Assembly (NCBI RefSeq): GCF_000010625.1 | Contig: NC_010296.1 | Location: 3,660,001 to 3,692,000 of the forward strand | Length of the DNA stretch: 32,000 bases | Direction of reading: 5' to 3' | Source: Microcystis aeruginosa NIES-843 | GTDB lineage: Bacteria > Cyanobacteriota > Cyanobacteriia > Cyanobacteriales > Microcystaceae | In this document: positions 1-10,102 of the stretch, one piece after another | Layout of the letters: each line of letters opens with the position of its first letter | How positions within the stretch are numbered: position 1 is the stretch's first letter | Notes under the pieces: model-generated | The model's database searches: none | Told to the model about the DNA's origin: nothing | What the model saw: the letters and a program-made list of their open reading frames with translations, nothing else | Made by a program: the position numbers and the translations under genes

Positions 1-1248
1 TTTAGGGAATGTCGAAAAGAGTTAGCTAAAGAAGGACTCATTGCCGAGTCTGCATTTGATGAGCTAACTAAAATTCTCACTTGTAAGTTTAACGAAGAGA
101 AAAGAGATGCTGAAGGCCTTGCACCCAATCGCTTTACATCTTCCTGGCTTCTTGGCAGTGGACCTCTAGCTGCTTTACAGCAAATGTTTACTGACGCAAA
201 ACAGACTTTTAATGTATTCCCTACGGGAACTCAAATTCAAATTAGAAGCAACGAAACTGTTGAAAAAATTGTTCGTGAATTAGAGCCTTTTGGTCTTTAT
301 GGTTTTAAGACACCACTTGGCTTGGCTGGAGCAGGAGGAGATGTAGTTGGTTCTGTTTATGAGGCCTTTCTTACTGGAACACTCCGAGGGGACTTAGGAC
401 AGTATTTAACCCCAAGACAATTAGTTGAGTTCATGGTTGAGATAGCTGATATAAAAATTGGAGAAAAAGTCCTTGATTTATCATGCGGAAGTGGTGGCTT
501 TCTTATTAGAGCGTTTATTAATGTCCGCAAAAAAATTCGATTTCTTGATTCTAGCCAAGATGAAAAAGATCATTTAGTTAGTAATCTTGTCACGAATAAT
601 CTATGGGGAATTGAGATAAATCCTCGGTTAGCCACTTTATGTCGAATAAATATGATTTTACATGGTGATGGCTATGAACATATTTATACAGGAGATTCAA
701 TTAGAGAAGATGTTTTTGAGAATACAGATGGACGCAGAACTGATTTTTTAAATATTGAGCAAAATAACGCAGCAATGTTTGATGTAATTCTCATTAATCC
801 CCCGTTCAATATACCCTATGAAGATTCTGCTACTTTAAACCGGTATTATCTAGGACGAGGTAAAGCTGCTCAAGGTTCAGACTATTTGGTTCTTGAGAGA
901 GCAATTCGACTATTAAAGCCTGAAACTGGACGTTTGCTAGTTATTTTGCCCCATGGTGTTGCCAGCGGAGTTTCCGAGACTGAAGTTCGCAACTTTGTGA
1001 AATCTCGTACACATATTCATGGTTGTATAAGCTTACCTGTCGGATCATTTAAGCCGTTTGGGGGGTCTAATGCTAGAACCTGTGTTTTGTATCTCAAGAA
1101 GACTACTGGAGACAATAAAAAGCGTTTTTTAGCACAAGCAGAACACGTTGGCTATGACATTACCTCAAAATATTATAGAGAAACTGATCTCAATGATTTA
1201 CCTGTTATCGCGGAAGCCTATCATAGAGTAAAACTAGAATTGCAATGA
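1..1248 (+). CDS. hsdM: Type I restriction-modification N6-adenine DNA methyltransferase (HsdM-like); 5' end lies outside the window
   Basis: Frame 1 is open from base 1 with no stop before the ORF-track Met at 184, so the gene is cut by the window edge. Motif order is gamma-class: SAM-binding DLSCGSGGFL, then catalytic LINPPFN. LGQYLTPRQLVEFMV is the typical HsdM pre-motif. Its stop overlaps the next gene's start (ATGA). Confidence 0.85.
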   Translation, partial: FRECRKELAKEGLIAESAFDELTKILTCKFNEEKRDAEGLAPNRFTSSWLLGSGPLAALQQMFTDAKQTFNVFPTGTQIQIRSNETVEKIVRELEPFGLYGFKTPLGLAGAGGDVVGSVYEAFLTGTLRGDLGQYLTPRQLVEFMVEIADIKIGEKVLDLSCGSGGFLIRAFINVRKKIRFLDSSQDEKDHLVSNLVTNNLWGIEINPRLATLCRINMILHGDGYEHIYTGDSIREDVFENTDGRRTDFLNIEQNNAAMFDVILINPPFNIPYEDSATLNRYYLGRGKAAQGSDYLVLERAIRLLKPETGRLLVILPHGVASGVSETEVRNFVKSRTHIHGCISLPVGSFKPFGGSNARTCVLYLKKTTGDNKKRFLAQAEHVGYDITSKYYRETDLNDLPVIAEAYHRVKLELQ

Positions 1249-1967
1249 CTATCGAGTTAATTAAACCAGACCCTTTAATATTAACAATCACTGAAGAATC
1301 AGCCCGTAGTATCGATACAGTTGATGCTGGTGCAGCTTATACACAATATTTGCATGAGCAAATAGGTGAGTTTGAACAGCAGCCTTTAGGAAACTTTGTA
1401 GATGTTGTATCAAGAAGCGTTAATCCACGCTCTAGTAGATATGCTGGTCAAATATTTGAATATATAGATTTACGAGAAGTAGATGATATTTATGGCTATA
1501 TATTAACTCTTAAACTTAATCAAGGAAATGAGATTGGAAGTACAAAACATCGCTTTCAAAAGAATGACATTCTCTTCGCCAAGATCATGCCCAGCTTGGC
1601 CAACAAAAAGATTGCGCTAGTAACTCAAGATGTAACTAACGCAGTAGCTTCAACTGAATTTATTGTTTTGCGAAAAAAATCACAAGCCGAGATTAATCTT
1701 TATTACCTTTTTCGGGCTTTACGTTCTGATCATTTTACCCGACAAGCGACAGCAAACGTTACTGGTGCAACGGGGCGACAGAGAATTAGCCCGTCTAGAT
1801 TACTAGAATTACAAATAATTGTTCCCCCAGAAGAGATTCAAACACAAATTGGAGATGCTGTCGAACAAGAGTTTACGCTAAGGACATTGGCGGCAGAACA
1901 ATCAAAGAAAGCTGATGACTTAGCTCAGCTTGTACTTGGTAATCTAACTCTTAGAACCGACAGCTAG
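1245..1967 (+). CDS. hsdS: Type I RM specificity subunit (HsdS-like), half-size with a single target-recognition domain
   Basis: 240 aa, against about 400-450 aa for two-TRD HsdS proteins. It has HsdS-type conserved-region motifs (STEFIVLR, TGATGRQRISPSRLLELQIIVPP). It is translationally coupled to the methylase by an ATGA overlap at 1245-1248. Confidence 0.75.
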   Translation: MTIELIKPDPLILTITEESARSIDTVDAGAAYTQYLHEQIGEFEQQPLGNFVDVVSRSVNPRSSRYAGQIFEYIDLREVDDIYGYILTLKLNQGNEIGSTKHRFQKNDILFAKIMPSLANKKIALVTQDVTNAVASTEFIVLRKKSQAEINLYYLFRALRSDHFTRQATANVTGATGRQRISPSRLLELQIIVPPEEIQTQIGDAVEQEFTLRTLAAEQSKKADDLAQLVLGNLTLRTDS

Positions 1968-1978
1968 AAAGCGCGGAA

Positions 1979-2100
1979 GGTAGGTTGGGTTGACGACTGT
2001 TACCCAACACCCCATCCAATAACCAGGCAAAATCATTTATAATTATTTGATAATAGGACATTGGTTGGGTTTCGTGCTAAATTCGTTGAGTATAGGCTAC
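1979..2100. repeat. GGTTGGGTT / AACCCAAC hairpin-type dispersed repeat (MITE-like, degenerate)
   Basis: taggttgggttgacgactgttacccaaca lies at 1981-2009 and ggttgggtttcgtgc...ataggctac at 2063-2100. A related copy, gtaggttgggttgaagcatgaaacccaac, lies near 13125. Confidence 0.4.
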
Positions 2101-2195
2101 ATATCAGGACAAGCAAAAGGGGGAATAGATAATCAGTTTTTAATAAACGGATTTAGGATCATTTTCCTTGGGTACTGACAGGAGGAACAAAACTG

Positions 2196-2516
2196 ATGCA
2201 GATAGAAATTCAAGGAGCCGATGCTATCAAAGTTGCTCAGGATATCGTCGAGATGGAAGGGGTGCAAGGCAGCTACGAAGTTATCTCCGAAGTGCAGAAA
2301 GAGGGAACCCTTGCTACCATCGCCACCATCATCGGCATTATTAGCGGAACAATCGCCATCGCTGAGAAATTGTACCAATTAAAGCGAAAAATTGACTCTC
2401 CTGAAACCCCGAAAATCGGACGAGTGTTAATTGTCAGCCAAAACGGCGATCGTCTGCTGCTCAAAGATGCTACCCTAGAGCAACTACAAAAACTCTTAGA
2501 ACAAGAAAAATCATGA
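2196..2516 (+). CDS. Small hypothetical protein (106 aa) with one central hydrophobic segment, coupled to the CHAT gene
   Basis: AGGAGG sits 8 nt upstream of the ATG. The hydrophobic stretch is LATIATIIGIISGTIAIA. Its TGA overlaps the ATG of the downstream CHAT ORF (tcATGAgg at 2513-2516). I recognise no family. Confidence 0.6.
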   Translation: MQIEIQGADAIKVAQDIVEMEGVQGSYEVISEVQKEGTLATIATIIGIISGTIAIAEKLYQLKRKIDSPETPKIGRVLIVSQNGDRLLLKDATLEQLQKLLEQEKS

Positions 2517-3073
2517 GGATACTGCATATTGATCTTCAGGAGAGGGGTAGCAATAGCGTTGAGTTCCGATTTTTCTGGGATAACCCCAACCAGACTCGTA
2601 CCTACACAAGATGCTTGAGTGAAATAGACCACCTAAGTAAAAAGGCCGACACCGATTACTATACCCGTTTACCAGAAGACCACGCCAGAACAGGACAAGG
2701 TTTGTACCGATGGTTAGATGGTACGGAGCGCATTCTACAGAACGAATTAGAGAGCCACCGGGGAGAGAAAATAGTTCTGGCTATCAGCACCAGCAAAAGA
2801 TTAGTCCATCTACCCTGGGAACTCCTACACGATGGTCAGGGTTTTTTGGTAGAGAAAAGACCTGCCATTATTCCCGTGCGGTGGTTTTCCAATAATAGAC
2901 CGAATCAGATTGTCAGTCCGCCGCCAAACCGTCCCCTCAACTTGCTCTTTATGGCTACCTCTCCGCTAGGCGTTGAACCCGTCTTAGATTACGAAGCAGA
3001 AGAGGGGCAAATTTTAGGAGCCACCCAGCGCAATCCGGTGAACTTGAGAGTAGAAGAAAGTGGTTGTTTAAAT

Positions 3074-4291
3074 AGACCTCTTGCATAATTTTTTTATGGT
3101 ATAATATAAGGTTTTGCTTTTTTCTCAATTCTTAGATTGAAGTGGAAAAAAGAATAAAATGTGATCTTAGGTCAGGAAATCATCTATAATTTTGCTATGT
3201 TTATTAGCAAAATTATGGATTATCAAAACTTATCAGATGAACAATTCAAACGCCGTTTCGGTGTGTATAAACAAACCTATAGAAAGATGGTAGAATCAGT
3301 AAAAAGTGTTGAAGCCGACTCTAATTCACCATCTAAAAGGGGACCGAAACCTAAACTATCTATAGAAGAACAAGTTTTAGTAACGTTAGAATATTGGCGA
3401 GAATATAGAACATATTTTCACATTGGTACAAGCTGGGAACTATCAGAATCAACTATATGTCGGATTGTAAATAAGACGGAAAAAATGCTTTTACAATCGG
3501 GAAACTTCCGTTTAAAAGGAAAAAAAGCTTTACTCAATCAAGCAGAGATACCGGTCATAACGGTAATGGATGTAACGGAAACTCCCATTGAACGCCCCCA
3601 AAAGAAACAGAAAGATTTTTTTTCGGGTAAAAGAGGTTATCATACTTTAAAATCCCAATTAGTAGCTGATCAAAATACAAAGGAAATTATCTGTGTCTTT
3701 TGTGGGAAAGGTAGAGGTCATGATTTTAGTTTATTTAAAAAAAGTCGAGTTCGTTTTCATCCTTTAACTACCAGCATAGAAGACAGTGGTTATCAGGGAA
3801 TAGCTGCATACCATAGTAATAGTTATACACCGAAAAAGAAATCGAAAAATAGAAAATTAACAGAGTTAGAAAAAGAGTATAACAAGGCTTTAGCCAAAGA
3901 AAGGATTATCATTGAACCTATAAATAGGAAACTCAAAATCTTTAAAATCTTATCCTGTAAATATCGGAATCGTCGTCGAAGATATAGTTTAAGAGTTAAC
4001 TTGTTGGCGGCTATTTATAACTGTGAGTTAGGGATAGGTATAGCAGCTTCTTAAAAGTTGCCTAAAGATTAATCAAGTCAAGGAGAATTTATTCTCAATT
4101 TTTATAATTGAGATAGTTTGTGCCGCTTAAATAAAGAGGTTTTGATAACCAAATTAAAGCAGCTCTAAAGAGTTTTGAGTTAAAAGTTAAACTTCAAGTT
4201 TTCATTCAGGACAAATGTACTGATTAACTAATTTTTTGGGGAAAATTAGTTAACCCATCATTATAACATATAATTAATTTGCAAGAGTTCT
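3074..4291 (+). mobile_element. IS5-family insertion sequence (PIF/Harbinger-like DDE transposase), 1218 bp
   Basis: The terminal inverted repeats are AGACCTCTTGCA (3074-3085) and the reverse complement of 4280-4291, AGAACTCTTGCA. A 3-bp direct duplication AAT lies at 3071-3073 and 4292-4294; bases 3070/4291 and 3074/4295 differ, so the duplication is exactly 3 bp. One transposase ORF lies inside. Confidence 0.85.
3215..4054 (+). CDS. IS5-family DDE transposase
   Basis: N-terminal HTH region (LSIEEQVLVTLEYWREYRTYFHIGTSWELSESTICR). Candidate DDE residues sit in VMDVTE, EDSGYQG and IIEPINRKLK. The ATG at 3215 (MDYQNL) is preferred over the GTG at 3161 used by the ORF track. Confidence 0.8.
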   Translation: MDYQNLSDEQFKRRFGVYKQTYRKMVESVKSVEADSNSPSKRGPKPKLSIEEQVLVTLEYWREYRTYFHIGTSWELSESTICRIVNKTEKMLLQSGNFRLKGKKALLNQAEIPVITVMDVTETPIERPQKKQKDFFSGKRGYHTLKSQLVADQNTKEIICVFCGKGRGHDFSLFKKSRVRFHPLTTSIEDSGYQGIAAYHSNSYTPKKKSKNRKLTELEKEYNKALAKERIIIEPINRKLKIFKILSCKYRNRRRRYSLRVNLLAAIYNCELGIGIAAS

Positions 4292-7020
4292 AATGAGTTA
4301 GGCTATGTAGTTCGGGAATATGACCAAGGCTACTTTGATGTCTTTCACTTAACAGGTCATGCAACTCATCAGGACGGAAAACCCTGCTTTCTCACCGAGG
4401 ATGAGTATGGCAACCAGGTTGATAGCGACACCAATGCCATTTATGATGCGATCAATCGTTCTTCTTTACCGCCTTTAATTTTCCTCTCTGGTTGCCGTAC
4501 AGGTTATGCTCCTGACAGCGCAGTTCCCTCCATGGCGGAAGAATTTTTGCACTTGGGGGCAAAAGCTGTTTTGGGTTGGGGAGAAAGGGTTCTAGATACG
4601 GATGCAGCAGTGGCAGCGAAGGAATTGTACGGACATTTATCCCAAGGGGAAACGGTAATTGAGGCCCTATCTGCTACCTATAGAGCCTTAATTGACCAGC
4701 AAGCAAGGGATTGGCATAAACTGCGCTTATATGTAGGAAACACTCTACCTCAAGCCCTAGTAACTCCCTTAAGGACACCGCAACGCACACAACTGCCAAA
4801 ACCGACAATTACCAGAGAATTTAGAGATGATGAAAATCGGCTTAGGGTGGTCAAAAGGGAAGAGTTTGTCGGTCGTCGTCGCCAGTTACAGAATTGTTTG
4901 CGAACGCTGAAAACGGATTGGGAAAAGGTTGGGGTACTAATTCATGGTATGGGAGGATGGGGAAAAAGTAGTATCGCCTCTCGACTGTGGGAGAGATTGC
5001 CTGAATCGGAAAAGCTTCTCTGGTGGCGACAAATTGATGAAGTTTATTTGATAAGAAAGTTAAAAGATAAACTCATCAATCCTAAAACTAGAGAACTTAT
5101 TGCTGATTTAGAAAACAATCAAATTGAACTTAAATCTCGATTATCTTACCTATTCATTCGGTTAGCTGAATTGGGAGAAAAACCGTTTCTTCTGATTCTT
5201 GATGACTTTGAATGGAATCTTGAACCCCGTGACGGTCGCTACATTCTTAAGGCTCCAGTCGCCCCGATTTTAGCAGCATTAGTCACGGCAATCCAAGAAA
5301 CGGGAACTGACCATCGGATTCTGATTACTTGTCGCTACGAGTTCGATTCTGATTTATTAGAGGCTTTTTTCTTGCAGGGATTAGAACCATTTAGAAAAGC
5401 CGAACTGACTAAAAAACTCGCTCGTCTAGCCAATTTTACCCCGGATCAACTTCCTGAACCTCTCAGGGAAAGGGCGTTGAATTTAGCCGATGGAAATCCT
5501 CGATTACTAGAATTTCTCAATAATGATGTTTTAGATAGAGAAGATGCAGAAGCTCAATTAGCTGAACTAGAAAATAGTCCCGATTTGTGGAAAGATAAAA
5601 TTATTTGGCAGGAACTGTACCAGCTTATCGATCAGCCATTACAGCAGGTTCTTAGTCATTGTTTAATCTATGAGATACCCGTCCCGATGGTAGCTTTAAA
5701 AGCTGTTTGTAGCTCCATTTCTAATTACCAAGGACAATTAAAACGGGGGTTAGATTTGGGGCTGATTGAGATTAGTTCTGAAGTTCAAGAAGAGGATCGA
5801 GTTTATCGTGTCTCTCGAATTTTACCTAATATTATTTCCTCTGTCCAACATCCGGTCGCAACAGAGGTTTATTCATTATCTAGGAAAGCTCATGATAAAT
5901 TATATGAATTATGGGGAAATAAAGAGAACAAAAACGAGGAAAGATGGGCAGAGATTTTTCGTCTAGCTTTTGCAGAGATAGAAAACCCTGAAAGGTTTAG
6001 GGAACAATTCGATAAGATGATCTCGGTACAATATCACAAAGAGGCTGATCGCGCCTACGAAAAAGAACTGAGAAAATCAAGGGAATATCTCATAAAAAAC
6101 CAAGGGCAAATCTATCAAAAACTAGAGAAGTACCTAGAGCAAAAGGATTGGAAAAAAGCCGACTACGAAACCGCTTTCATTATGTATCAGTGGATGGTTA
6201 TAGAAAATTTTGATAAGATATATGATCTTTTTAAAGAAGTATCGCTAGAGGTAATTAATGAGATTGACCGTCTCTGGATGCACTACAGCGAAAGGAAATT
6301 TGGCATTAAAGGACAGGCCAAAATTTACCGTGACCTTGGGGGGAAAGAAGAATATAATCGGGAAGTATGGGGTAGTTTTGGCGATTACATAGGTTGGAAA
6401 CAAGGAGAACGATGGTTTAATTTGGGCAATATGGAAGTAGCATATCGTACTCCAGAAACCCATTATAATCACTTCCCCGTACTAATGTACTGCCGAGGAG
6501 ATTTGCGTTATTGGGACATTTGGGGTGAGGTTTACTGGGGTTTTTATGGGAGGCTGGCTTATCCTGGGATGAATCCTAGGGGTATTGGATCTCTTCTCTC
6601 GCGTCAAGACTTAAAGGACTGTAGCATATAGGGTTACAAGATTTTGTGAACAATTATTAACGAGTAATTTTCCACGAAGCCATGCGGGTTCTGGGTTTTC
6701 GATACCTGTCACCGAGGGGTCAGCCACTCGCCCGATGTTTTTGTAGTATGGTTCCTACTAGAAAGTTATGGGTGAGAAAATCTTTGTGTTCTTTGTGCCT
6801 TTGTGGTTCTTTCTTGCGCTTTTTGGTAATCTTCACTGCAAATCATCCCATGTAGAATTTCTGGCAATTTATCGATTAAATTTCTGGCTTTTTGTTTAAT
6901 GTTTTTTATTTCCATAATGGTTTCCAAAATGACTCCTGACAGTTTACATTATCAACTATTCATTATTAATTAAAAGGGCGATCGCAAAATTACGCCTTCT
7001 TAAAAAAGAGATGAAACACC

Positions 7021-7665
7021 TTAAGCAAAACCCAAAGGTTGAAACTGAGTATCATTGATAATTTTAACCGTTTCCCCCGACTGCTTAATCACAAACAAAC
7101 CGCGCCGATAGGCATAGACATCTATCCCCTGATCAATTTCAATGCCTGCCACTGCCCCATAAACCCGAAACTCTCGAAATTGGGGGAAAGCAACCTTAAA
7201 TCGCTGTAATCGGCTGACAAAATCATCTACATCATCCCTCGACAGTCGAGATTTACATTCCACAGCCACCAACTCGCTCCCATTCACCGCCACAATATCA
7301 ATCTCCATTGCCGCCCCAGAACGCTTACTTTTCAAGCGACTCATCGTTTGGGTGACATCAATGCCCCGTTCCTGAAATAAACGCACAACCGCAGGCTCTA
7401 CCATTTCTTCAACGAATCTGCCCCAGCGTGTTGTTAGGTTATTAACAGCTTTGGTCGTTTCTTGTACCTGTTTTTTTAATTCTTCCATCGTGCGATTAGC
7501 TTCCTCTCTGCGGCGATCAGCTTCGGCACTGCGGCGATCAGCTTCGGCACTGCGGCGATCGGCTTCGGCACTGCGGCGATCAGCTTCCTTTTGAAACTCG
7601 GCAAATTGGGCCTCAGTTCTTTCAAATAACTTGTAAATATCGGCGATCGTTACAGCGTCTGACAT
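7021..7665 (-). CDS. PD-(D/E)XK nuclease-fold protein with N-terminal coiled coil (DUF3782-like cyanobacterial family)
   Basis: The C-terminal half has a D...E-x-K arrangement (MEIDIVAVNGSELVAVECKS). The N-terminal half is a charged helix with EADRRSA repeats. The ATG at 7665 (MSDAV) or the one at 7701 could be the start. Confidence 0.6.
   Translation of the reverse strand: MSDAVTIADIYKLFERTEAQFAEFQKEADRRSAEADRRSAEADRRSAEADRRREEANRTMEELKKQVQETTKAVNNLTTRWGRFVEEMVEPAVVRLFQERGIDVTQTMSRLKSKRSGAAMEIDIVAVNGSELVAVECKSRLSRDDVDDFVSRLQRFKVAFPQFREFRVYGAVAGIEIDQGIDVYAYRRGLFVIKQSGETVKIINDTQFQPLGFA
7508..7587. repeat. 21-bp tandem repeat x3.8 inside the CDS (encodes EADRRSA heptads)
   Basis: The unit ctgcggcgatcagcttcggca starts at 7508, 7529, 7550 (one a-to-g change) and 7571 (partial). 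Confidence 0.95.
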
Positions 7666-8137
7666 AGGAAGATTCTTCAAGCTTGAGGAGTCTAGTCCCA
7701 TTCTAGCGACTTGGCCCAGAAAAAATGTCCCTAGCTTCTCATCCGTGTTTTTTCAATCAATTATTGACTATCAACTAATCAGCGATCGCAGTTCAAGGGG
7801 AAGGGGTCAAAGGTCAAAAGGCGATCGCGTTTTTAATGGATAATAGGCAATTGACAATGGATAATTATCAACCATAGCTCCTGCGGCCATGGGCTACTAT
7901 TTTAATCATCAGGAAGAAATCAACCTGGAAATCACCCAAGAATGGGATCAGGTACAAATTAGCATAACGCGAATAGCTAAATCACCTTTTTACAACGGGA
8001 GGAAAGAAGTGACTTTTTCCCCGCCCTTCCCCCGAATGCACCCCGTAACTGATATAAGTAGAGATGTAGGTCTATAACCAAAATTGCCGCATCAGTTCGG
8101 TTAGGTGACTGTTTTTCGCTTGTCTAGGAGGGTAGAT

Positions 8138-10102
8138 ATGCTCAACGAATTAATTTATGAAGGATTAGGTTTAAGTGCTGTTTTCGGAGGACTATTCCTC
8201 TGGTCGCGCTCTGGTCTCGTCAGCAAAAATACCGCCCTTTTAGCCGCACAAGCGCAATTACAGCAAAGTAGCTCAGATTTGTTGGCTCAAGTCAAGGGTT
8301 TAGACGTGGCGCAATCAGAGTTAAAAGACGAAAATCAGCAGCTGCACGCCAAAATAATTCACATAGAACAACATTCCGCCCAATTACAGCACAAAGCTAC
8401 GGATTTAGAAAATTCTCTCCAGTCCCTCCAGCAAGCTGTCCATATAGGTGAGGGTGAAATCGAACACCTGAAAACCACCGCTAAGGAAATAGAAGCGGAG
8501 AAAGCTGGTCTGATGGAGCAATTAGAGGGAGAAAAAGCCCAAATTACTAGCCTAGAGGCACAGATTCAAACTTTAGAGCAGCAAAAAGGTGAAATTAACC
8601 GTCAATTTGATTTGACCAAAAAACAGACCACCTCTCTCTATAGTCAAATTCAGACCCTAGAACAGGATAAAACTCTCTTACAGCAAGAGCTAGAAAAAGC
8701 CGAGGAATTAAGGGCAAAAGTGGCCGATTTAGAGTATAAAAACCAAGAATTAAGCGATTTAGCCGCTCAAATTCCCAGCTTGCAAGGTCAAATTCAAACC
8801 TTAGAACAGAATCTGGCTCACCAAACAGAACATTATGAGCGAGGACAGCAAGAAATAGCCAGCTTACAGGGTCAAATTACCGGGTTAGAACAGGAAAAAA
8901 AGTCTCTCAGCGAAGATTTAGCCGCAAGTCAAACTCGATCGCTCTCTTTAGGCCAAGAATGCGACAATTTAACTATAAAACTCCAAGAAACCGTCGCTCA
9001 AGTGACAGCCATAACCGCCGAAAAGGACAGTCTCGGTGCTCATCTCGAAGCAGCTAAACTGGAGTTACAAGCTTTAGCGGCCCAGAAAGGGGAATTATCG
9101 GCAGAATTAAGCACTGCTGCCGAAAAAATTGCTAATTTAGAAGGGCAATTACAGGAATTAACCCAGTTACCGCAACAATTGGCCGATTCTCAGGCAACAA
9201 TTGCTAATTTAGAAGGGCAATTACAGGAATTAACCCAGTTACCGCAACAATTGGCTGATTCTCAGGCAAAAATTGCTGATTTAGAAGGGCAATTACAGGA
9301 ATTAACCCAGTTACCGCAACAATTGGCTGATTCTCAGGCAACAATTGCTAATTTAGAAGGGCAATTACAGGAATTAACCCAGTTACCGCAACAGCTAGAA
9401 ACCTATCGGGAAAACATTTCTAATTTAGAGATTCAACTACACCAGTTAAGTTCCGAAAAAGACCAATTAGAAACCACAACTTCCCGTCATATCGAGGAAT
9501 TAAGCCAACAAAATCGCCAACTAACTCAAGATTTAGAAGCCCAAAAAACGGTAGCTAAAGCTTTAGATAAGGAAAAAATTAAGTTTGAGGGTGAGTTAGC
9601 AACTAAGCAAAAAGAAATCGCCGCTTTAGTGGTTAAAATTCAAAACCTACAACAAGAAAGAGACGATTTCTCTCGACAAACTGCTCCCATTATTACTAAT
9701 GAACCAGAAGCAATTATTAGTGAAACTCCTGTAGTAGAAGAGCCGGAAACCACCCCGGTGATTGCCGAGGAAACTCCGGTAGTAGCAGCAGAAAAAATCC
9801 TGGTTGCCGATACGAGTTTAGAAGTGCAACCCGCAGCGGAGATAGTCCAAACGAGTCAAGAATCCGCCGAAAATACCCTAAGGGGAAAAAGCGTAGTTAT
9901 ACTAGGAACCTTCAGCAAAATCAGTCGCGAGAAAGCGAAATCATTGATTATTAATGTCGGTGGTACTGTTACCAGTTCCCCCAGTGCGAACACTGATTAT
10001 ATTCTCCTCGGTAAAGCCCCCGGTGAGAAACTCAAAAAGGCTCAAAAATTAGGCATAAAAACCCTTTCAGAAGCCCAATTTCTGCAAATGGTAGAATCCT
10101 AA
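8138..10102 (+). CDS. Membrane-anchored long coiled-coil protein with C-terminal BRCT domain
   Basis: GGAGGG precedes the ATG at 8138; the ORF-track start at 8105 is a GTG. The N-terminal hydrophobic helix is LGLSAVFGGLFLW. About 480 aa are Q/E/L-rich heptad sequence. The C-terminus, GKSVVILGTFSKISREKAKSLIINVGGTVTSSPSANTDYILLGKAPGEKLKKAQKLGIKTLSEAQF, resembles the LigA-type BRCT domain. Confidence 0.7.
   Translation: MLNELIYEGLGLSAVFGGLFLWSRSGLVSKNTALLAAQAQLQQSSSDLLAQVKGLDVAQSELKDENQQLHAKIIHIEQHSAQLQHKATDLENSLQSLQQAVHIGEGEIEHLKTTAKEIEAEKAGLMEQLEGEKAQITSLEAQIQTLEQQKGEINRQFDLTKKQTTSLYSQIQTLEQDKTLLQQELEKAEELRAKVADLEYKNQELSDLAAQIPSLQGQIQTLEQNLAHQTEHYERGQQEIASLQGQITGLEQEKKSLSEDLAASQTRSLSLGQECDNLTIKLQETVAQVTAITAEKDSLGAHLEAAKLELQALAAQKGELSAELSTAAEKIANLEGQLQELTQLPQQLADSQATIANLEGQLQELTQLPQQLADSQAKIADLEGQLQELTQLPQQLADSQATIANLEGQLQELTQLPQQLETYRENISNLEIQLHQLSSEKDQLETTTSRHIEELSQQNRQLTQDLEAQKTVAKALDKEKIKFEGELATKQKEIAALVVKIQNLQQERDDFSRQTAPIITNEPEAIISETPVVEEPETTPVIAEETPVVAAEKILVADTSLEVQPAAEIVQTSQESAENTLRGKSVVILGTFSKISREKAKSLIINVGGTVTSSPSANTDYILLGKAPGEKLKKAQKLGIKTLSEAQFLQMVES
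9128..9393 (+). repeat. 72-bp near-perfect tandem repeat x3.7 within the coiled-coil CDS
   Basis: Units start at 9128, 9200, 9272 and 9344. Each encodes IANLEGQLQELTQLPQQLADSQAT, with only a few substitutions (ggcc/ggct, acaattgctaat/aaaattgctgat). Confidence 0.95.

Follow-up and report, generated by a model that had tools for sequence, protein, structure and literature searches.

We analysed a stretch of 32,000 nucleotides from Microcystis aeruginosa NIES-843 (the window; NCBI RefSeq assembly GCF_000010625.1, contig NC_010296.1, positions 3,660,001 to 3,692,000 of the forward strand, with coordinates below counted from its first letter). Near its left end lies a gene for a protein of 106 amino acids, directly followed by a large gene that, once an insertion sequence (IS) is taken out, encodes a 965-amino-acid fusion of a CHAT caspase-like protease, a STAND NTPase and a GUN4-like domain. 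Judging from profile comparisons, the small protein is a divergent branch of EACC1 (PF19953; Effector Associated Constant Component 1), and the locus is probably an inactivated cyanobacterial EACC1/CHAT-STAND cell-suicide module of the abortive-infection type. Its features are as follows:

2196-2516, + strand: small open reading frame (ORF) for the 106-residue putative EACC1-family protein, recognised from the ORF and its ATGA overlap with the next gene
2513-3073, + strand: 5' part of the large gene, residues 1-187, with a beta-rich N-terminal region and the CHAT domain's first half
3074-4291, + strand: IS5-family insertion sequence of 1218 bp, recognised from its inverted repeats, a transposase match and the empty site in M. 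viridis NIES-102
3161-4054: transposase ORF of the IS, with DDE_Tnp_4, DDE_Tnp_1 and HTH_Tnp_4 matches and a match to the IS5 transposase model NF033581 (198.8 bits)
4295-6631, + strand: 3' part of the large gene, residues 188-965, with the rest of CHAT, a linker, the STAND NTPase, a helical domain and the GUN4-like domain with its variable tail
2687-4711, + strand, spanning the IS: CHAT caspase-like protease domain, residues 59-326
4862-5218, + strand: P-loop core of the STAND NTPase, residues 377-495, with Walker A (GMGGWGKSS) and Walker B (LLILDDFE) motifs
to about 6073 (about residue 780), + strand: helical, winged-helix-like region following the P-loop core
6101-6484, + strand: core of the GUN4-like domain, residues 790-917
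6494-6496, + strand: codon of R921, the equivalent of Arg214 of Synechocystis Gun4
to 6628, + strand: hypervariable tail, residues 889-965

An AGGAGG box sits 11 nucleotides 5' of the small ORF, whose TGA stop codon shares the letters ATGA with the start codon of the large gene at 2513. The frame opened there stops at 3088 because the 1218-bp element, with imperfect terminal inverted repeats, has inserted at 3074-4291, with the three letters AAT repeated directly on either side (3071-3073 and 4292-4294). The ends of the element were fixed by blastn against the corresponding locus of M. viridis NIES-102 (L001): window 1-3073 equals L001 5489-8561 at 100%, and window 4292-7524 equals L001 8559-11791, the second match resuming from the same three bases. 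Removing the element restores a 965-residue ORF identical to the intact NIES-102 protein (P0001), and the 699-residue ORF at 4532-6631 is 100% identical to the database entry 'GUN4-like protein [M. aeruginosa NIES-843]' (P0011). The IS-interrupted gene and its 965-residue reconstruction, both proposed in the initial annotation, are thus borne out by the identity to the NIES-102 protein and by the exact blastn ends. In NIES-843 the large gene is a pseudogene, its protease domain split by the IS5 element. The 106-residue protein is 100% identical to the NIES-102 copy; the strain retains an intact gene for the predicted toxin with a dead predicted activator, and the module is inactivated. With the window gene being a pseudogene, it is the intact NIES-102 allele that has practical value. 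Promoter and terminator scans around the module gave signals no better than shuffled sequence.

Profile searches with the reconstructed protein placed Pfam CHAT (PF12770, clan CD) at 64.1 bits against a cut-off of 24 (1.9e-17), AAA_16 at 45.7 bits against 32.6, and GUN4 (PF05419) at 66.6 bits against 29.2 (3.5e-18; model positions 4-125 of 141). The catalytic residues predicted from the motifs FHLTGHA and FLSGCRTG are H209 and C254; both are invariant in an alignment of 26 diverse homologues, as are GxGGxGKS and the Walker B residue D490. An AlphaFold2 model of the large protein had a mean pLDDT (predicted local distance difference test score) of 70. Foldseek matched its N-terminal part to the SAVED-CHAT protease 8tl0 (3e-7), Craspase Csx29, MALT1, caspase-9 and separase, the CHAT-fold matches including 8tl0, 7y84 and 8eey, and its middle part to plant NLRs (9qlv, 1.9e-6; 7dfv, 2e-5), WRR4A and RPP1 among them, as well as to ORC/Cdc6. 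The CHAT-NB-ARC-GUN4 architecture originally suggested, together with the profile checks proposed for it, therefore held for CHAT and GUN4, which exceed their gathering scores and agree with the fold, but not in full for NB-ARC (PF00931), which at 19.0 bits falls below its gathering score of 23.5 for the 965-residue protein. Relatives that end in TPR repeats do pass this threshold (L047, 30.7 bits; L049, 28.1 bits), a precomputed PF00931 match is present in many homologues of the large protein, and the NLR folds point the same way. A safer description of the STAND core is AP-ATPase/NB-ARC-like, with NB-ARC a resemblance at the level of the clade and not a Pfam-level assignment for this protein.

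The large protein has more than 1400 homologues, the named ones nearly all cyanobacterial, with the family concentrated in colonial and filamentous forms. We judged gene order in a sample of 79 genomic loci, 76 of them with enough upstream sequence. A homologue of the small protein lay upstream on the same strand at 71 of the 76, far beyond chance, and in 58 loci the small gene ended at most 40 nucleotides from the large one; at one locus (L034) it is reduced to a remnant. The pairing, which the initial annotation had left to such a survey, extends to a sister clade of large proteins, 38-40% identical, that keeps the small gene and carries TPR repeats instead of GUN4 at the C-terminus. It is thus the protease and the NTPase that the small protein accompanies, and the C-terminal domain is exchangeable. 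The same protease-NTPase core with either a TPR or a GUN4-like end amounts to a natural experiment on GUN4-like sensing outside chlorophyll synthesis.

The loci also vary in other ways. The large gene is truncated or frameshifted in about 10 of the 79, and modules occur in tandem, for example at L015 830-4160 and 5671-8808 (loci with tandem, truncated or frameshifted copies are L015, L021, L031, L033, L037, L039, L043 and L046). In one of them, L021, about 1.2 kb is inserted immediately ahead of the GUN4-like domain. An exception to the pairing is L014 5182-8829, which has no EACC1 gene upstream; the encoded paralogue (P0099) has a caspase-like Peptidase_C14 domain fused before CHAT, possibly as the variant of a protease cascade. 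Strains compared at a single Microcystis locus (L011, L045, L032 and L038 against L001 8372-10173) are 90-98% identical in the flanks, in the first ~370 nucleotides of the large gene and in its GUN4-like end, whereas the central CHAT-NTPase part has no nucleotide similarity and about 61% identity at the protein level. This pattern points to mosaic alleles made by recombination.

The small protein matched nothing in Pfam, NCBIfam or PADLOC apart from a sub-threshold hit to Pfam DUF6556, and of its 798 homologues the 120 that were listed are all unannotated, PF19953 included. A profile of the cyanobacterial set (A3), run against 1.8 billion representatives, collected 239 relatives, nearly all stand-alone proteins of about 105-120 residues and some apparently non-cyanobacterial by composition. 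One of these relatives is P0383 (3.5e-11), and in the set derived from P0383 (A4) 21 of the 26 members matched Pfam EACC1 at E up to 0.01, with two above its gathering score of 23.6 bits (P0396, 27.3 bits; P0399, 27.8 bits). Aligned with hhalign, A3 and A4 gave a probability of 99.6% and an E of 3.4e-24 over 106 columns, the full length. The protein has the traits of an EACC1-type component: it is small and stand-alone, with a conserved central hydrophobic segment of small residues between short alpha+beta flanks. Directly before this segment stands an acidic residue, E36 here and mostly Asp at the aligned position of the A4 set. The 5' gene position next to a caspase-superfamily protease gene is likewise shared, through the ATGA overlap here and, in the distant loci L087 and L088, with EACC1 genes 3-11 nucleotides upstream of CHAT-AAA_16(-TPR) genes.

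This assignment ties the locus to a described system. EACC1 and a caspase-like protein were described together as a two-gene conflict system by Kaur, Burroughs, Iyer & Aravind (their 'System 4'; eLife 2020, PMC7159879), and a pair from Ktedonobacter racemifer was put to experiment by Evans et al. in 2025 (bioRxiv 10.1101/2025.11.14.688446). The view that the module is uncharacterised has to be given up accordingly. The preprint describes KrEACC1 as a soluble, autoinhibited monomer in which the N-terminal part makes a sheet together with the C-terminal strands. It is cleaved by the STAND-fused protease KrAvs12, putatively at Asp49, which stands two residues ahead of G-T-I-L. Of the two products, an N-terminal one of 5.7 kDa and a C-terminal one of 7.1 kDa, the latter alone is toxic, and only the cleaved protein makes liposomes leak (bioRxiv 10.1101/2025.11.14.688446). 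With the profile result, some 800 cyanobacterial proteins that had no name (the 120 listed being without a precomputed match) are placed among the EACC1 toxins. The EACC1 system is accordingly widespread in bloom-forming and filamentous cyanobacteria, with a bearing on cyanophage resistance and on cell death in Microcystis blooms.

The sequence of the small protein divides into a beta-alpha-beta unit (residues 1-31), an exposed linker (32-38), a Gly/Ala-rich hydrophobic stretch (38-56) and an amphipathic helix followed by beta-beta-alpha (57-106). E36-G37-T38, directly before the hydrophobic stretch, is invariant or nearly so, as are A43, G47 and G51 within the pattern TLATIATI(V/I)GI(V/I)(S/G)G. 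AlphaFold2 (pLDDT 84; predicted TM-score 0.77) gave a compact alpha/beta monomer, beta-alpha-beta-beta-alpha-beta with an extra strand and helix, in which a linker of lower confidence (residues 31-40) stands between the predicted autoinhibitory unit, the N-terminal beta-alpha-beta, and the remainder; this agrees with the autoinhibited monomer described for KrEACC1. In this model the hydrophobic stretch is a strand and the start of a helix, not a membrane helix. Of the initial description of a 106-residue ORF with an ATGA overlap and one hydrophobic helix, the overlap and the hydrophobic stretch stand; the membrane-helix status is unproven, set against the soluble fold of the model. No natural fusion of the small to the large protein occurs among the 120 listed homologues, and a few longer proteins in the representative library carry unrelated, unannotated N-termini on small-protein homologues.

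In one alternative the small protein would not be a cleaved toxin but would span the membrane once, permanently, and serve the protease as an anchor or as a sensor on the membrane side. Over residues 38-56 the Kyte-Doolittle 19-mer mean of 2.0 favours a membrane helix, whereas the summed Hessa-scale free energy, about 0.1-1.7 kcal/mol, is borderline for one. The flanks, acidic on the N-side and rich in K, R and W (basic and aromatic) on the C-side, are as the positive-inside rule expects, and the small residues A43-G47-G51 are strictly conserved. Distant members have 23-25 hydrophobic residues uninterrupted, whereas a divergent homologue (L028) has only about 14 at that stretch. A conserved transmembrane helix was also the original reading of EACC1 by Kaur et al. 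(PMC7159879). Against an anchor stand the confident soluble alpha/beta fold and, in the preprint, the purification of KrEACC1 as a soluble monomer that acts on liposomes only after cleavage (bioRxiv 10.1101/2025.11.14.688446), and we consider a permanent anchor improbable. The soluble and membrane views would fit together if the segment were buried before cleavage and entered the membrane afterwards.

The fold also bears on a further possibility, in which the small protein, instead of being the substrate of the protease, would act on it as a chaperone or stoichiometric inhibitor, much as an antitoxin or a subtilisin-type prodomain does. Its beta-alpha-beta-beta-alpha-beta topology is ferredoxin-like, a topology that occurs in some protease prodomains, and translational coupling through ATGA would favour joint production of both proteins. 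Foldseek searches of the PDB and BFVD with the small-protein model returned ferredoxin-like ACT/PII/S6 matches that were weak and non-significant (all matches E > 0.02, TM-score about 0.4). Because of this, the prodomain-type inhibitor idea was dropped, as was that of an ACT/PII-like ligand-binding regulator. In the tested homologue, moreover, deletion of EACC1 abolished toxicity and did not unleash it, according to the preprint (bioRxiv 10.1101/2025.11.14.688446); an inhibitor is the least credible of the roles considered, and we give it very little weight. Among the options first listed for the small protein, substrate or effector has become the preferred one, since profile evidence puts the protein in EACC1, a family in which a protease-activated, membrane-permeabilising toxin is known.

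For the EACC1/CHAT-STAND module we propose the following mechanism. The 965-residue protein, in its intact NIES-102 form, would be an NLR-like receptor with the C-terminal GUN4-like domain as its input. Ligand binding would let the central STAND NTPase oligomerise, and oligomerisation would gather the N-terminal CHAT domains and so switch them on. CHAT, doing the job of a C14-like caspase, would then cut the co-translated EACC1 protein in its exposed linker, at or near E36-G37, and the freed C-terminal fragment of ~70 residues would self-assemble in the membrane, permeabilise it and kill or arrest the cell. Cleavage, the toxicity of the C-terminal fragment and membrane leakage are carried over here from experiments on a distant homologue (KrEACC1/KrAvs12). 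The cut is predicted at or near E36/G37 because the linker at residues 31-40 precedes the hydrophobic segment, E36-G37-T38 is (near-)invariant and the aligned EACC1 position is mostly Asp. The predicted fragment, residues 37-106, has an estimated mass of about 7.6 kDa, near that of the 7.1-kDa toxic fragment of KrEACC1.

Several observations weigh against this interpretation. EACC1 membership rests on the intermediate set: searched directly, the Pfam EACC1 model does not pick up the window protein even with E allowed to reach 10, and the A3 profile matches the tested KrEACC1 only weakly (probability 4.7%), too weakly for a residue-by-residue transfer of the cleavage site. The N-terminus of KrAvs12 has no CHAT match, so that the tested system is a different protease branch and its cleavage specificity may therefore not carry over. 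A PADLOC v2.0.0 scan of the large protein matched no model of a known system except through the GUN4-like part; a BovA match at the catalytic Cys was weak (1.2e-4). Housekeeping genes surround several module loci, no cyanobacterial member has a known phage, trigger or phenotype, and the experimental source on EACC1 cleavage is a preprint (bioRxiv 10.1101/2025.11.14.688446). Set against the profile homology, the conserved pairing and the invariant catalytic residues, these points leave the cell-suicide module as the probable reading.

We turn to the input of the module. A profile of the GUN4-like domain finds the solved Gun4 proteins 7e2r, 4ykb, 1z3x and 1y6i in the PDB. In Synechocystis Gun4 (SynGUN4), Arg214 is essential for porphyrin binding, and the pocket, or 'greasy palm', is formed by F105, L116, V135, L143, I146, W150, V162, F174 and L177 (PMC1084334). 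Most of the palm positions are hydrophobic or aromatic in the family consensus, and the spacing P208-x5-R214 is preserved as P915-x5-R921 in the window protein. Of 23 aligned relatives only 14 have R or K at the place of Arg214, and a crude count of the motif finds it in no fewer than 48 of 110, so that roughly 40% or more of the relatives lack the arginine. The Pfam GUN4 match stops at model position 125 of 141, which leaves the pocket region alpha7-alpha8 outside it; residues 889-965, comprising the alpha6/alpha7 loop and alpha7-alpha8, have a mean identity of 26% compared with 66-68% for the protease and NTPase, and a pLDDT below 35. The domain (residues 787-923, window about 6092-6502) also matches positions 303-430 of 450 of the PADLOC model for PD-T4-6, a system recorded as found in E. 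coli, at 7.3e-17; this is a match to the PADLOC model, the domain content of the PD-T4-6 protein being unconfirmed. For Streptococcus, 'PD-T4-6' has been described as a PASTA-type kinase.

These features allow a tetrapyrrole or bilin (protoporphyrin IX, Mg-protoporphyrin, haem, biliverdin, phycocyanobilin or a phage-made bilin) as the molecule that binds the GUN4-like domain and switches on the protease. The GUN4 score well above threshold, the profile matches to porphyrin- or bilin-binding Gun4 structures, the largely hydrophobic palm and the preserved P915-x5-R921, whose Arg214 counterpart is essential in SynGUN4 (PMC1084334), argue for it. Tetrapyrrole sensing has been proposed for GUN4 fused to caspases, kinases, trypsin and TIR, by Kaur et al. 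(PMC7159879), so that the initial suggestion of a tetrapyrrole-triggered switch is not new for GUN4-caspase fusions. The incomplete conservation of R/K at the Arg214 site and the unmatched, divergent and poorly modelled alpha7-alpha8 region argue the other way, since an invariant metabolite should hold its pocket constant; so does the sister clade, which has TPR repeats, a protein-binding kind, where this domain would stand, and so does the alignment of the domain with the model of an E. coli system, with the caveat on PD-T4-6 given above. The palm and R921 of the proposed switch are present, whereas the arginine is lost in ~40% or more of relatives, the tail is hypervariable and the sister clade has TPR. 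We regard a tetrapyrrole or bilin input as unlikely.

With such an input the module would report a disturbance of the pigment pathway by photo-oxidative stress or phage takeover, which concerns the input only and is compatible with an EACC1 output. Cyanophages carry haem oxygenase and bilin reductase genes. That the GUN4-like domain is a true small-molecule sensor, triggered by a tetrapyrrole or bilin that changes in infection or photo-oxidative stress and not by a phage protein, we hold to be doubtful; if a pigment-pathway ligand were the trigger, the protein would be a metabolite-guarding STAND, an NLR-like receptor releasing a pore-forming toxin. A tblastn search with the GUN4-like domain found no match in phage genomes and, among plasmids, cyanobacterial matches only, on 31 plasmids of which 25 are conjugative or mobilizable; there the domain is fused to CHAT, NACHT NTPase, Ser/Thr kinase, ankyrin and SAV_2336-N-terminal proteins. 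No chlorophyll-synthesis genes stood beside the module in the loci whose neighbours were examined.

The surroundings of the module include the following features, the second group with coordinates of the respective loci:

1-2076, + strand: restriction-modification (RM) cassette (N6_Mtase and Methylase_S matches), with a methylase/endonuclease fusion that runs off the window and ends at 1248 and a specificity subunit at 1245-1967
L001 4527-4757 (off-window left), L011 5227-5457, L084 9390-9626 and L025 5169-5387: ribbon-helix-helix-like genes

In NIES-102 the methylase/endonuclease gene encodes 588 residues with HSDR_N. The cassette, of about 2.7 kb with its right edge at window ~2076/2077, is found in NIES-843 and NIES-102 and is missing at the same site in other Microcystis strains (L011, L045, L032); it is an insertion/deletion polymorphism. 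Strains without it have the same flanks, with a 76-residue ribbon-helix-helix-like gene 226 nucleotides upstream of the small gene; in the arrangement seen here the cassette lies between the off-window ribbon-helix-helix gene and the EACC1 gene. Such genes, for 72-96 residues and not all detectably related to one another, lie upstream of EACC1 in many GUN4-type loci; one of the proteins passes Pfam RHH_5 and the others are sub-threshold. The gene could be a third, regulatory component of the module. Small cassettes also sit between the EACC1 and protease genes in some genomes (L036 2179-2445; L049 5176-5857; L047 5668-5958). Judged by eye from their sequence they resemble toxin-antitoxin cassettes, in two genomes, with a ParD-like antitoxin and a pair of the HigB/HigA-like kind. 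Tolypothrix has two modules on either side of a complete type I RM system, beside a Tn7-like element, and L087 has helicase and PLD genes as neighbours.

The RM, toxin-antitoxin and transposon neighbours, together with the tandem and broken copies, fit a defence role. The defence-island context first proposed from the RM pair directly upstream is supported as to the pair and the type of neighbours, but as an argument it is only moderate because several loci lie among ordinary housekeeping genes. The same loci leave room for a physiological or developmental regulator, for instance of bloom-collapse cell death or as a HetF-like regulatory protease, in place of an anti-phage system. The CHAT proteases HetF and All2170 act in heterocyst development, EACC1-DnaK fusions have been read as a link to general stress, and the family is concentrated in colonial and filamentous species. 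Patchy presence, multiple divergent paralogues per genome, mosaic alleles at the single Microcystis locus, frequent pseudogenes and the RM, toxin-antitoxin and transposon neighbours speak against such a regulator, as does the trigger of the sole tested EACC1 system, a phage tail-connector protein in the preprint (bioRxiv 10.1101/2025.11.14.688446). A regulatory role is in our judgement quite improbable, and abortive infection would remain the probable function of the module.

Two further genes lie downstream. The one at 7021-7701 on the - strand, just after the module and conserved in NIES-102, encodes a 226-residue protein with a repeated ADRRSAE motif, a DUF3782 match and weak matches to PD-(D/E)XK, Card1 and Csx1-type nucleases. 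The one at 8105-10102 on the + strand encodes a 665-residue coiled-coil protein with several near-identical repeats of ~24 residues (GQLQELTQLPQQLADSQA(T/K)IA(N/D)LE). The repeats align with those of NIES-102 in more than one register, one alignment having 24 gap positions, and the repeat number may therefore differ between the two strains.

Compared with known systems, the GUN4-like domain shares with the Mg-chelatase cofactor Gun4/Ycf53 (1y6i, 1z3x, 4ykb, 7e2r) a homologous core, alpha1-alpha6, the hydrophobic palm and P-x5-R. It differs in being the C-terminal domain of a 965-residue protease-NTPase, in an alpha6/alpha7 loop and alpha7-alpha8 that are hypervariable or unmodelled, in the loss of the critical Arg from many relatives, and in adjoining no chlorophyll-synthesis genes in the loci whose neighbours were examined. 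With bacterial gasdermin systems, Craspase Csx29-Csx30 and SAVED-CHAT the module has in common, as a prediction, that a sensor-activated caspase-like or CHAT protease cuts an adjoining latent effector. The effector here is neither a gasdermin nor Csx30, and activation would be expected through a STAND NTPase instead of a cyclic oligonucleotide or a CRISPR RNA complex.

A close parallel is System 4. There too a stand-alone 5' gene encodes ~105-115 residues with a conserved hydrophobic centre of small residues and short alpha+beta flanks, the next gene starts with a caspase-superfamily protease followed by variable domains, STAND NTPases and repeats included, and the profile-profile homology stands at 99.6%; the cyanobacterial branch is unlike it in being missed by the Pfam EACC1 model (0 of the 120 listed of 798). 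A GUN4-like C-terminus was not linked to EACC1 systems in the text of Kaur et al. 2020 or Evans et al. 2025 retrieved by term search. KrEACC1-KrAvs12 resembles the present module in the EACC1 gene upstream of a protease-STAND fusion, in the model of an autoinhibited soluble monomer with a ~7-kDa C-terminal fragment holding the hydrophobic segment, and in the expected logic from sensor to STAND to protease to cleaved pore-former. It differs in that the KrAvs12 protease has no CHAT match whereas that of the window protein is CHAT, in a sensor that recognises phage tail-connector proteins where a GUN4-like domain stands here, and in the marginal direct sequence similarity of the two EACC1 proteins. 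The EACC1-protease kind of module is already known, and the present module is the cyanobacterial, CHAT-type, GUN4-sensor form of the known EACC1-protease-STAND system.

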